A DNA stretch of 64,000 nt from Candidatus Omnitrophota bacterium (GTDB taxonomy: Bacteria; Omnitrophota; Gorgyraeia; Gygaellales; Profunditerraquicolaceae): contig JAQUOD010000005.1 in the NCBI GenBank assembly GCA_028717245.1, forward strand, positions 18,637 to 82,636, given 5' to 3'. The notes beneath the pieces were generated by a model that saw only the letters and a program-made list of their open reading frames with translations, did not search any database and was not told where the DNA came from. The stretch's first letter is position 1, and each line of letters begins with the position of its first letter. The position numbers were made by a program, and so were the translations under genes. Positions 17,966-53,960 of this stretch are shown piece by piece.

Positions 17966-22013
<4,048 letters not shown>

Positions 22014-22175: not shown

Positions 22176-25100
22176 ATGTATACGCGTAACGAAAAAATTA
22201 TCCCGGTTTATATTGAGGATGAGGTCAAGGACTCTTATTTAAATTATGCCATGAGCGTCATCGTCGGCCGCGCCCTGCCCGATATCCGCGACGGCTTAAA
22301 GCCGGTGCACAGGCGCATTCTTTATGCCATGCAGGAGCTTAATCTTGACCACTCTAAGCCTTATAAGAAATGCGCGCGTATCGTCGGCGAGGTCCTGGGT
22401 AAATACCATCCCCACGGCGATGTCGCGGTTTATGATGCCTTAGTCAGGATGGCCCAGGGTTTTTCCCTGCGCTATCCTTTGGTAGACGGGCAGGGAAATT
22501 TTGGATCGGTCGACGGGGATGCAGCTGCCGCGATGAGATATTGCGTCACCGGAGATACTCTGATTGTTACAGATAAAGGACTGCAAAGAATAGACAAACT
22601 TCCTCATCATTCCAAAACAGATTTTCGGGTACTTTCATTAAATAATAAGATAAATCATGTTTCAAAATGGTTTGATTCCGGAGAGCATTTAACTAAAAAA
22701 ATTACTACCTTTAGAGGTTTTAGCTTATGCGGGAGCCGGAATCATCCTATTTTAACGTGGCAACGTAATGGAACAAAGCCAAAATTAGTTTGGACACTAT
22801 TGAATAATGTAGAAAATGGCGATTTTGTCGTAGTCAGTAGGAGCGGTTCGTTATTCCCTTCAAGGGAACCTTTATTAAAAAAATTTTATCCAGAACTTCG
22901 AAACAGAAGGCAGGAGCATAAGCTTCCTCGCGCTATGAATGTAGATCTGGCTTTTATTTTGGGAGCGCTAATTGCAGAAGGTTCTATAAGCAGGGAACAA
23001 ATTGGATTCTGTAATGGGGATAAAGAGTTTCTACGGGAATTTAAATCGTGTTTCCAGCGAGTATTCCCCGATTGCAGGCTGCATGAATTTGTAAGAAAAC
23101 CGTTGAGTTATGGGAAAAAGAAATGTACTTATTTAGAAATTCATTCAATGCATGTTATAGATTTTTTGAAAAATCTAGGGTTACGTCAGTTGCGAGCTTA
23201 TGATAAAACCATTCCAGATATAATTTTTTCTTCCTCGAAAAAATCGGTTGCCGCGTTTATAAAAGGTTATGCAGAGGGAGATGGTAGTATTTGTGTTGGC
23301 AAAAGAAACCCTGATATCAGCTTGATATCAACCAGCGGAAAATTGATTCAAGGTTTACAGGTTTTCCTCCTAATGTTTGGCATTGATTCTTCGCATAGAT
23401 TTCATAAGCAAAAAAACTATTTTAGGTTGTTTATTAGAGGCCGCAACAATCTCGATTTATTTAAAAATCAAATAAATTTTGCTACTAGGAAAAGTCGTGA
23501 AAGGTTGATAGATATTTGTAATCGCAATAAAACTGATTGGGTTATGTCCAAGACAGATTGTATTCCCTACATCGCCGACTATCTTCGTAAAAAAAGCACA
23601 CGGTGCAAGAGAAAATATTGGGGGAACATAGAATGGCTAAAAAAACACAACATCGATAGGTACCCAAAAATAGAAAAATACTGGCCCAGGCTAAGAAGGG
23701 TTCTTGATAAAGACGATGTTAGTTTGTTTGAGGGTTTGATAAAAAATAGATATATCTTTGATAAAATTGTTTCGGTAGAAGATGCTGGTAAGAAAAGAGT
23801 CTATTCAATTAAAGTGGATAGCCCGTGCCACTCATTTGTATCCAATGGATTCATAAGTCATAATACTGAAGCGCGCCTGGCTGCTATTTCCGATGAGATA
23901 CTCGCGGATATTGATAAGGACACCGTAAATTTCGGGCCCAATTTTGACTCCTCCCTCAAAGAGCCGCTTTTATTGCCCGCGGCCTTGCCTAATCTGTTAG
24001 TGAACGGCTCAAGCGGTATAGCTGTGGGTATGGCTACCAATATCCCCCCGCACAATTTGAATGAAGTGGCCGATGCCATTATCTATCTATTAGATCATCC
24101 GGAAACCGAAATCAAGGACCTGATGCGTTATATCAAGGGTCCGGATTTTCCGACGGGCGGCGTAATCTGCGGCAGGAACGGTATCAAAGATGCCTATACC
24201 ACAGGAAAAGGTAAGCTCACCGTGCGCGCGCGGGCCACTATCGAGCGCCAGAAGAACGGCAAGGACCTGATTATAATTACTGAGATTCCCTACCAGGTGC
24301 AGAAATCCGCGTTAATTGAGGCCGCCGCCGCTTTGGTGGACGATAAAAAAATAGAGGGTATTTCTGACATCCGCGATGAATCCGATAAAGACGGGATGCG
24401 TATCGCGGTAGAACTCAAGCGCGACGTGGAAGCGCAGATTGTCTTGAATCAGCTCTTTAAACATACGCAACTGGAGACTACCTTCGGGATTATTATGCTG
24501 GCGCTGGTAGACAACAGGCCGCGGGTTTTGACGTTACGTCAGATGTTGGAATATTATATCGAGCACCGCAAGATTATCATCCGGCGCAGGACGCAATTTG
24601 AATTAGATAAGGCCTTAAAGAGGGCGCATATCTTAGAGGGCTTAAAGATTGCCCTGAAATACATCGACCGGATTATCAAGGTCATCAAGACCTCCAAGAA
24701 TACGGAGAATGCCAAAGAGCGCCTGATGAAGGAATTCGGCCTTTCTGATGTGCAGGCGCAGGCGATATTAGAAATGCAGTTGCAGCGCCTCACTGCTTTA
24801 GAGCGCGATAAGATTGACGCCGAATATTTAGAGCTCCTGAAAAAAATTGAACTGTGTAAAGCCATACTCGCCTCGGAGAAGAAAATTGAAGGCATCATCA
24901 AAGAGGATCTGGAGGCCTTAAAGAAAAAATACGGCGATGAACGCAGGACCGACCTGGTCGCCGAAGCAGAAGAATTAGAGGTGGAAGACCTTATCGCCGA
25001 AGAAGACGTAGTGGTGACAATAAGCCACGGCGGTTATATCAAGCGCTTGCCGGTGAGCGCCTACCGTAAACAGAAACGCGGGGGCACAGGGGCAACGGGC

Positions 25101-25931
25101 GCAGAAGTCAAAGAAGAGGATTTTATAGAACATCTTTTTGTGGCCTCGACCAAAGATTATTTATTGACCTTCGCTGATAAGGGCCAGGTGCATTGGCTCA
25201 AGGTTTATGAAATCCCGCAGGCCAGCCGCACTTCCAAAGGCAAGGCCATCATTAATCTTTTACAGATGGAAGCAGGCTCTAAAGTCAGCTCGACCATACC
25301 GGTGAAGGAATTCTCCGCTGACCAATACCTGGTAATGGTCACCAAGTGCGGCCAGATTAAAAAGACAAGGCTTGACGCCTACGGTAATCCGCGCAAGGGC
25401 GGGATTATCGGCATTAGCCTGGATAAGGGCGATGAGCTGATCGGCGTAGAGTTAACCGACGGAAAACAGGAGCTGCTTATCGGTACCCGCCAGGGTAAGG
25501 CCATAAGATTTTCTGAGAGCAAGGTGCGGGATATGGGCAGGCAGGCAGGAGGCGTACGCGCCATCTCTTTAGCCAAGAAAGACGAAGTGATTGCCATGGT
25601 TTTAGCCCAGAAGGATACCACAGTATTAACCGTTACGGAATTAGGCTTTGCCAAACGTACACCCATTCAAGAATACCGCCTGACCAGCCGCGGCGGCAAA
25701 GGCATTATTAATATAAAAGTCACCAGTAAGAACGGCGAGGCAGTAAGTTTAAAGACTGTCAGCGACAACGACGAGCTGATGGTTATTACACAGAACGGCA
25801 TGTTCTTACGTTGTGCGGTCAAAGATATCCGCACTACCGGCAGGTCTGCCCAGGGAGTGCGGCTGATTAAGCTACAGGAGAAAGACCGCGTTTCTTGCGT
25901 GGCGCCGGTGATTGCAGAAGAGGAAGAATAA
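22176..25931 (+). CDS. gyrA: DNA gyrase subunit A, intein-containing precursor (about 810-aa extein plus 441-aa intein)
   Basis: The GyrA N-terminus is present. AAMRY (catalytic Tyr at extein residue 122) is interrupted by CVTGDTLIV...NGFISHN and resumes at [11 protein letters not shown]. Confidence 0.95.
22542..23864 (+). mobile_element. GyrA intein with LAGLIDADG homing endonuclease domain
   Basis: It is inserted directly after the catalytic Tyr. Splice-junction blocks resemble the mycobacterial GyrA intein (…ITNGFVSHN). LAGLIDADG motifs are [14 protein letters not shown] and [14 protein letters not shown]. It is 1323 nt and in frame. Confidence 0.85.
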
Positions 25932-26044
25932 CCCCTAAAGTCCCCATCGTCTTCCCGCCATTCTATGCAATAGCAGGCGGGATCCCGCCTGAATATATAG
26001 GTTGTTTGGCGGGAAGCCTGGTCTATGACAAATTGTTGCAGGAC

Positions 26045-26308
26045 ATGTACTATGTTTATGTTCTTGAGAACGCGAAGGGTAAGTACTATATAGGCAGTTG
26101 CGAAAATCTATCGGCACGGCTAAAACAGCATAATCAAAACTGTGTTAGTTCGACAAAAAATAAAGGGCCATTTATAATAGTTTACAAAGAAGATTGTGCC
26201 ACAAAAACAGAAGCACGTAAACGAGAGAGCCAGTTAAAGGGCTACAAAGGCAACAGTAAGTTTGATAGATTAATAACGAGCTTGTCCCCATCGTCTAGCC
26301 TGGTCTAG
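26045..26308 (+). CDS. GIY-YIG nuclease family protein (small YhbQ-like)
   Basis: The sequence MYYVYVLENAKGKYYIGSCENLSARLKQHNQ...KTEARKRESQLKGY carries the GIY-YIG motifs. The likely start is ATG 26045, and the longer track ORF from 25895 overlaps gyrA. The last 8 codons read into tRNA-Glu. Confidence 0.7.
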   Translation: MYYVYVLENAKGKYYIGSCENLSARLKQHNQNCVSSTKNKGPFIIVYKEDCATKTEARKRESQLKGYKGNSKFDRLITSLSPSSSLV

Positions 26309-26358
26309 GACAAGAGCTTTTCAAGCTCTCGACACCGGTTCAAATCCGGTTGGGGACG
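26284..26358 (+). tRNA. tRNA-Glu (anticodon TTC)
   Basis: The sequence is GTCCCCATCGTCTAG...AGAGC-TTTTCAA-GCTCT...ACCGGTTCAAATCCGGT-TGGGGAC-G. It closely resembles canonical bacterial tRNA-Glu. Confidence 0.85.
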
Positions 26359-26508
26359 TTAATATTGACCGGTTCCCCGCCTACGCACCTTGAATTTACT
26401 TCGTAAAGCGCTATGGTGTACTTCGCGGGTCCGCCGTAGCTCACCAAAGCTAAGAAGGAAATCTACCAAAGAACGAAGGCGGAAAATCCGGTTGGGGACG
26501 TTAATATT
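26343..26508 (+). repeat. 25-bp direct repeat AAATCCGGTTGGGGACGTTAATATT (tRNA-Glu 3' end plus 8 nt) flanking a 117-bp insert
   Basis: Copy A is at 26343-26367 and copy B at 26484-26508, immediately 5' of the glmS ATG. Confidence 0.85.
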
Positions 26509-53817: not shown

Positions 53818-53960
53818 TTGCATTTGCTATCGCGTATGGTATAATTGTTTTAAAAGCAATAGTAGATAAGTAAGTGGTCTGGGAATATACAAAAGTATTC
53901 CCGGAGGATTTTCGATGGTCGGGCCGCCATCTTGCATGATAATGCGGGATGGCGTTTTTT
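53818..53960 (+). promoter_or_regulatory. promoter (TTGCAT-16-TGgTATAAT) plus leader with mutually exclusive antiterminator/terminator hairpins
   Basis: The leader contains GGGAATA...TATTCCC, then GATGG-TCGGGCC-GCCATC overlapping CGCCATC-...-GATGGCG-TTTTTT. This lies 34 nt upstream of ATG 53994. Confidence 0.55.

Follow-up and report, generated by a model that had tools for sequence, protein, structure and literature searches.

A LAGLIDADG intein in the gyrA gene of an uncultivated Omnitrophota bacterium and sequence evidence for its recent homing between related lineages

A stretch of 64,000 nucleotides (nt) from a Candidatus Omnitrophota bacterium (GenBank assembly GCA_028717245.1, contig JAQUOD010000005.1, positions 18,637 to 82,636 of the forward strand), here called the window, holds an origin region with dnaA, dnaN, gyrB, gyrA, a tRNA-Glu gene and glmS, in which the gene for DNA gyrase subunit A (gyrA) is interrupted by an intein. 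The gyrA open reading frame (ORF), at 22176-25931, encodes 1251 amino acids (aa), and its residues 123-563 are the intein, whose 441 codons (22542-23864, + strand) are free of stop codons and in frame within gyrA in the translation of the window. The insert begins with a Cys right behind ...GDAAAAMRY(122) and ends in ...NGFISHN, after which the gyrase resumes with TEARL. DNA cleavage by GyrA is carried out by the Tyr of AAMRY (Tyr122 in Escherichia coli numbering), and the insertion site is presumably the one named gyrA-a in the InBase nomenclature. We hold with high confidence that the element is a class 1 intein, probably with an active nested LAGLIDADG homing endonuclease, placed between Tyr122 and Thr123 of an Omnitrophota gyrase. 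The original prediction, made from the letters alone, had put an in-frame LAGLIDADG intein of 1323 nt and 441 aa directly after the catalytic tyrosine, and both the stop-free translation and the presence of the two endonuclease motifs that it quoted bear this out. The features of the gene are the following:

22176-22541, + strand: gyrA N-extein, codons 1-122 of the ORF, ending in the catalytic Tyr122 codon (22539-22541) and aligning across the junction to GyrA structures
22542-23864, + strand: complete class 1 intein of 441 aa with nested LAGLIDADG homing endonuclease, as assigned from Pfam, NCBIfam, a PDB sequence search and a predicted structure
22542-22856, + strand: N-terminal splicing (Hint) half, aa 1-105, aligned to residues 3-110 of the Mycobacterium xenopi (Mxe) GyrA intein at 31% identity and matched by TIGR01445 intein_Nterm
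22542-22544, + strand: block A, Cys1 codon
22743-22745, + strand: codon of His68 in block B, G-S-R-N-H68
22857-23696, + strand: LAGLIDADG endonuclease domain and helical linker, aa ~106-385, from Pfam LAGLIDADG_3, PDB entries 7qsu/7qss and Foldseek
22947-22988, + strand: LAGLIDADG motif 1, intein aa 136-149, with E146
23250-23291, + strand: LAGLIDADG motif 2, intein aa 237-250, with D247
inside the endonuclease domain: block D with K222, and block H, aa 272-284
23697-23864, + strand: C-terminal splicing half, aa 386-441, aligned to residues 147-199 of the Mxe GyrA intein at 43% identity
within the C-terminal half, + strand: block F, VYS422...C429-H430, and block G, NGFISH440-N441, with the Asn codon at 23862-23864
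23865-25931, + strand: gyrA C-extein, with the +1 nucleophile Thr at 23865-23867, running to the stop codon

The nature of the insert as an intein with a Hint domain is confirmed by Pfam, NCBIfam, a search of PDB sequences and a confident predicted structure, in agreement with the Hint-domain similarity expected at the outset. Against Pfam, the intein matches PF14528 (LAGLIDADG_3, E=1.9e-19, in two stretches) and PF14890 (Intein_splicing, E=8.8e-9); among the NCBIfam models, TIGR01445 (intein_Nterm) is matched above its cut-off and NF038098 (GyrA_w_intein) is matched by the intein alone with E=4.6e-60 over profile positions 117-537. The whole 1251-aa protein follows NF038098 in one collinear stretch, residues 8-1246 corresponding to positions 2-1227 of 1232 (1214.7 bits). 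Among PDB sequences the top match is the Mxe GyrA intein (1am2, E=3.8e-19), in two pieces that correspond to the N- and C-terminal splicing halves, and the middle of the intein matches the endonuclease domains of the archaeal V-ATPase inteins 7qsu/7qss (E ~1e-12). An AlphaFold2 model of the intein, with 14 family members as input, reached a predicted local distance difference test score (pLDDT) of 88 and a predicted template modelling score (pTM) of 0.90. In Foldseek this model is matched over its full length by TliVMA (7qss, E=1.6e-24, TM-score on the query, TMq, 0.67), followed by PI-PkoII, PI-PfuI and PI-SceI; its Hint part resembles the Mxe GyrA intein 1am2 (TM-score on the target, TMt, 0.83) and its core resembles free LAGLIDADG enzymes such as I-DmoI, with the alpha-beta-beta-alpha-beta-beta-alpha fold of such endonucleases.

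Excision of the 441 residues yields an 810-aa GyrA in which AAMRY-TEARL is restored, as had been foreseen. The first 491 residues of the spliced protein align without gaps, through ...AAMRYTEARL..., to the GyrA of Bacillus subtilis (4ddq, which reads AAMRYTEARM; E=1e-191), and the alignment is equally gap-free with many other gyrase structures and with an intein-less relative of 810 aa (P0031). The empty site reconstituted from the window gyrA is GACGGGGATGCAGCTGCCGCGATGAGATAT^ACTGAAGCGCGCCTGGCTGCTATTTCCGAT, and the empty allele of the nearest intein-less genome, L002 (GCA_043802425.1), in which the gyrA site and the site of a gyrB intein described below are both empty, reads ...GCTGCCGCAGCTATGCGTTAT^ACCGAAGCGCGCTTAGCGGCT... 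The intein thus accounts for the length of the gyrA product, 1251 aa instead of 810 aa, and anyone using GyrA as a phylogenetic marker should first remove it. The window GyrA is identical to an NCBI protein (P0030) from a Candidatus Omnitrophica metagenome-assembled genome (MAG), annotated there plainly as DNA gyrase subunit A. The G+C content (GC) of the intein is 0.36 against 0.50 in the gyrA exteins, and that of third codon positions (GC3) is 0.32 against 0.60. On the strand opposite to the intein no credible ORF was found, the longest having 73 aa.

Conservation was examined across 82 inteins, namely that of the window, three loci found through protein matches and 78 of 80 loci from GTDB genomes. 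C1, N67, H68, S422, H430, H440, N441 and the +1 Thr are invariant in all 82, and position 65 is Ser or Thr throughout (S65-R-N-H68 in the window). Every residue expected of class 1 splicing is present: Cys1, block B, the block F His, the His-Asn end and the +1 Thr. In the same set, position 146 is Glu or Asp in 82/82, position 247 Asp or Glu in 80/82 and position 222 Lys or Arg in 82/82; the two-motif LAGLIDADG endonuclease domain is complete, with both catalytic acids (E146 and D247, which end the two LAGLIDADG helices), and no residue required for splicing or cleavage is lacking. The ratio of nonsynonymous to synonymous substitution rates (dN/dS) lies at 0.10-0.14 in the intein and, over three comparisons, at 0.07-0.12 in the endonuclease core, values that mark purifying selection on the endonuclease domain. 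Intein residue 429 (23826-23828) directly precedes the block F His; 77 of the 82 family members have Cys there and the remaining five Asp. It may serve in catalytic tuning or, together with Cys1, as a redox trap.

The comparison with known inteins places the element among those of mycobacterial gyrases. It shares with the Mxe and M. leprae (Mle) GyrA inteins the host protein, the insertion point ...AAMRY/C...HN/TE... and the nucleophiles Cys1 and +1 Thr, and with the Mxe intein also the unusual VYS of block F, with Ser instead of Asp, and the NGF[IV]SHN end; the C-terminus of the M. xenopi intein quoted in the original prediction, ...HAFITNGFVSHN, is indeed that of the PDB sequence 1am2. The close resemblance claimed on that ground holds with a nuance, since the N and C splicing halves share 31% and 43% of their residues, respectively, with the Mxe intein. 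Unlike the window intein, the Mxe intein (1am2, 4oz6) is endonuclease-free and has Asp where the window has Cys429, and the mycobacterial hosts belong to the Actinobacteria whereas the present one belongs to the Omnitrophota. The contrast between a full endonuclease domain here and the Mxe mini-intein was rightly drawn, yet the full-size form is the usual one: the M. leprae GyrA intein has 420 aa with an endonuclease domain, as here, and that of M. xenopi 198 aa without (PMC8861304), so that the full-size LAGLIDADG GyrA intein is the norm and M. xenopi the odd one. With its 441 aa and full endonuclease domain the window intein is no mini-intein, a form without endonuclease of ~130-200 aa.

Short GyrA fragments of Mycobacterium sp. 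and Nocardioidaceae, found with the Mxe GyrA N half as query, read ...PAAMRY/C[LV]TGDA..., and the insertion point is therefore that of the actinobacterial GyrA inteins. The top rank of Mxe in the PDB search and the NF038098 match cited above (E=4.6e-60) establish homology to the known GyrA inteins, so that the element is the same allele and not only an occupant of the same site. The family described by NF038098, 'intein-containing DNA gyrase subunit A', resembles the window protein in single-stretch collinearity and differs in that the score lies below 1850. With TliVMA and PhoVMA (7qss, 7qsu, 7qst), PI-PkoII, PI-PfuI and PI-SceI the window intein shares a Hint domain into which a two-motif LAGLIDADG endonuclease is set; Foldseek matches to these archaeal and yeast endonuclease-bearing inteins range in E from 1.6e-24 to 1e-10, with full-length TM-scores of ~0.5-0.68 and 9-20% identity, and they differ in host protein and insertion site. 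Fifty GyrA inteins were counted in 2015 in Actinobacteria, Aquificae, Chloroflexi and Proteobacteria (PMC4760082), and the authors of a gyrase phylogeny came across 23 archaeal GyrA inteins, which they discarded (PMC9348778). Among the papers searched, none brings up inteins in connection with Omnitrophota.

The distribution of the intein among close relatives is patchy. Of the 120 most similar GyrA proteins, with 86-100% extein identity, 114 have 809-812 aa and no intein, and 117 have none at the AAMRY/TE site, the window's own protein, P0093 and P0141 being the sole carriers of an intein there. On a broader scale the family is large and widespread: a scan in which each GTDB species was represented by a single genome gave at least 542 loci encoding relatives of the intein, the best 80 of which lie in Omnitrophota, Patescibacteria/CPR, DPANN archaea, Margulisiibacteriota and further groups. 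Junctions that read RY/C...HN/TE and a stop-free intein of 419-459 aa are found at 79 of the 80; the eightieth is truncated by the end of its contig. Related inteins were also found in three proteins of unidentified hosts (P0025-P0027). Querying a word-indexed protein database with the intein understates the size of the family, as this missed the window's own protein (P0030) and its closest relatives P0093 and P0141, which were recovered only with the spliced extein as query, although the window's protein and an 81% identical relative are both in that database. Two routes of spread found no support: phage relatives are no more than 28% identical and lie in genes for a terminase or helicase, which leaves a phage vector unsupported, and the top cross-domain intein identities (54-56%) do not exceed the extein identities, so that recent transfer between Bacteria and Archaea is unsupported as well.

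Horizontal acquisition, which the original prediction had proposed to check against host markers, emerges from incongruence, from islands of identity and from breakpoints. The intein and its hosts are incongruent, closer hosts having more distant inteins: in P0141 (locus L003) and L027 the exteins are 86-90% identical to those of the window and the inteins only 48-49%, while hosts with 56-75% identical exteins carry inteins 54-61% identical to the window's. Conversely, the window, L004, L005 and L085 share an intein at 92-96% nt identity against 75-84% in the gyrA exteins; in the flanking genes, identity between the window and these three is 73-79% for gyrB and 67-71% for glmS. Synonymous divergence (dS) in the intein is 0.15 for L004 and 0.23 for L005, while the exteins, where it is saturated, give at least 1.2, so that the intein value is at least 5-fold lower. 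The high identity breaks off a few bases from the junctions, and past the C junction it goes from ~0.95 to 0.67-0.77 within the first 30 nt. Upstream of the intein, the last 45 nt before the N junction are the same in L005 as in the window, and L004 has 4 differences there; this stretch is possibly a short co-conversion tract, a 45-nt identity having by our arithmetic a chance of ~2e-4 at an 83% background. Between the window and L001, L002 and L003 no extein co-conversion tract is visible at that divergence. The four copies with 92-96% identity come from different assemblies and differ mutually by 4-8%, and each of them keeps the reading frame and the junction residues exactly. Patchiness, incongruence with hosts and near-identical copies in diverged backgrounds are the expected signatures of intein homing in general (PMC7765530), met here in uncultivated Omnitrophota, and the simplest reading of the sequence comparisons is recent homing, driven by the endonuclease, between related Omnitrophota lineages.

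The same excess of intein over extein identity is seen in other pairs of the family (L010 with L016, L007 with L016, from MAGs labelled Clostridia, and L037 with several DPANN), for example 95% against 74% and 69% against 46%; recent transfer is therefore general to the family and not specific to the window.

Several observations weigh against parts of this picture. The Intein_splicing score only equals the gathering cut-off (35.8) when the intein is searched alone and lies just below it (34.2) in the whole protein, and the 1214.7 bits against NF038098 fall short of the curated cut-off of 1850, the protein being too diverged for that 'exception' model. It passes the generic gyrA equivalog models NF004043 and TIGR01063, and under NCBI's rule it is named by these because the NF038098 cut-off is missed. 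The low GC of the intein relative to its flanks is a family trait, found at 79 of the 80 loci, with intein GC following host GC (0.24-0.58); as a sign of recent arrival it was rejected, this AT-richness being shared by 79 of the 80 hosts. Saturation of extein dS makes the age ratio a lower bound only, and a flanking co-conversion tract is seen for L005 only. Furthermore, all the sequences compared are metagenome-assembled, and near-identical shared inteins could produce chimeric contigs.

The life cycle that we propose follows the established chemistry of class 1 inteins, such as that of Mxe GyrA. The 1251-aa precursor would be translated and Cys1 would undergo an N-S acyl shift aided by the block B His68; the thioester would be attacked by the +1 Thr to give a branched intermediate, cyclisation of Asn441, aided by His440 and His430, would free the intein, and an O-N shift would join Tyr122 to Thr123 in a normal 810-aa GyrA. 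Self-splicing of the precursor is indirectly supported, as gyrase is essential and the insert splits its active-site motif. The freed intein, of 441 aa and ~51 kDa (our estimate from length), would then act as a site-specific endonuclease, cutting an intein-less gyrA at the ...ATG MGN TAY^ACN GAR GC... junction, and repair off the intein-bearing copy would insert the intein, that is, homing. The low dN/dS of the core, the recent spread and the breakpoints at the intein ends lend indirect support to cleavage of the intein-less allele. Splicing, DNA cleavage and the route of DNA between cells are steps that we infer.

Alternatively, the intein could be fixed and passed on vertically with its endonuclease inert, and be kept only because imprecise loss would wreck the gyrase active site. 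This explanation agrees with the tracking of host GC by intein GC across the 80 hosts, which suggests long residence in many lineages, and with the pair formed by the window and L001, whose inteins (81% aa identity) and exteins (89-96%) fit vertical descent. We nevertheless regard it as improbable: four lineages share copies of 92-96% nt identity against 67-84% in their exteins and neighbouring genes, dS shows the contrast given above, 117 of the 120 closest GyrA proteins are without an intein at the site, and the core keeps its catalytic acids and a dN/dS of 0.07-0.12. A gyrA segment exchanged by ordinary homologous recombination, or chimeric assembly, might instead account for the high identity of the inteins, and conserved genes do recombine, while every sequence comes from a MAG or a metagenome contig; but the block of high identity coincides with the intein, extending by at most ~45 nt on the N side, the four copies are mutually different and come from separate assemblies rather than being one reused sequence, and frame and junction residues are exact throughout, so that this explanation is highly improbable. 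A non-splicing inserted domain is implausible in view of the invariant splicing residues and of the location within the active-site motif.

The intein could also have been co-opted as a conditional splicing switch on gyrase, for example through a Cys1-Cys429 disulfide that delays splicing, with the unrelated gyrB intein gating the partner subunit. Cys429 is kept in 77 of 82 relatives, against Asp in Mxe GyrA, both gyrase subunits bear inteins in the window and in L001, and conditional splicing is documented in other inteins (PMC7360933, PMC4513877). Such a role seems unlikely, since the two inteins occur independently (L005 and L085 carry the gyrA intein and have an empty gyrB site) and most close relatives carry neither, which argues against a needed regulatory role. 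That the intein is more than a passenger, whether by redox-gated splicing that would switch gyrase and supercoiling in ultra-small bacteria or, in a milder form, as an active endonuclease sweeping across Omnitrophota species, strikes us as doubtful; if the milder version is true, the intein would offer a natural means of tracing how uncultivated lineages exchange DNA.

On the preferred reading of a spliced-out class 1 intein with a probably active endonuclease, the element is ordinary in kind and leaves the general knowledge of inteins unchanged. What it adds is clear evidence, drawn from sequence comparison, for recent homing between lineages of an uncultivated phylum, and thereby a clean natural case of inter-species intein homing. 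The pattern of transfer points to DNA exchange and homologous repair among these lineages, and the intein is a candidate new PI-type endonuclease that would tolerate synonymous variation in a highly conserved gyrase target of 20-40 bp.

The gyrA intein is not the only one in this origin region. Inside the gyrB ORF (18243-22013) an intein of 434 aa (19599-20900, + strand) lies in the context GDSAGG/...ASGVFVHN/SAKQGRD; its middle is HNH-like (weak match to Pfam HNH_3) with no LAGLIDADG, and the intein is poorer in GC (0.38) than the exteins (0.47). L001 and L004 carry this gyrB intein, L002, L005 and L085 lack it, and its distribution is therefore independent of that of the gyrA intein. No further intein was found by Pfam in eight other large ORFs of the window; a home-made hidden Markov model scan for window inteins proved too specific and overlooked even the gyrB intein.

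GyrA is in fact a hot spot of inteins in this Omnitrophota clade. An HNH-type intein occupies a second gyrA site, GQGNFG/C...VHN/SVDGD, in P0059 and P0123 (clade with 86-91% extein identity), a different LAGLIDADG intein lies at ARIVGE/C...SHN/ in P0118, from the same narrow Omnitrophota GyrA clade, and P0019, a more distant GyrA, has two inteins at once. The gyrB intein of the window and the HNH-type gyrA intein of P0059 are homologous (32% overall, E=3e-78), with the Hint halves and one motif much higher, which suggests that one intein lineage moved in the past between gyrA and gyrB genes.

Downstream of gyrA, an insertion of ~350 bp (25932-26282) separates the gyrA stop codon from tRNA-Glu and contains a small GIY-YIG nuclease ORF (26047-26308, + strand; Pfam E=6e-15), whose end overlaps the intact tRNA-Glu. 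At the start of the insertion there are partial copies of the tRNA-Glu 5' end, GTCCCCATCGTCT at 25941 and AGCCTGGTCTATGACAA at 26015-26031. The insertion is absent from L001-L005, where tRNA-Glu follows gyrA after 3-20 nt, and has the look of a second mobile nuclease element beside gyrA, independent of the first. Further on, a perfect direct repeat of 25 nt, AAATCCGGTTGGGGACGTTAATATT, is found at 26342-26366 and 26484-26508, 142 nt apart; it places a second copy of the tRNA-Glu 3' end directly ahead of the glmS start, in a tRNA-glmS spacer that is much shorter in the relatives, and may be the footprint of an element integrated at the 3' end of the tRNA. Elsewhere in the window, an nhaA-I RNA, a riboswitch class, lies at 53875-53932 (+ strand), with an Rfam score of 47.3 bits against a gathering score of 37.

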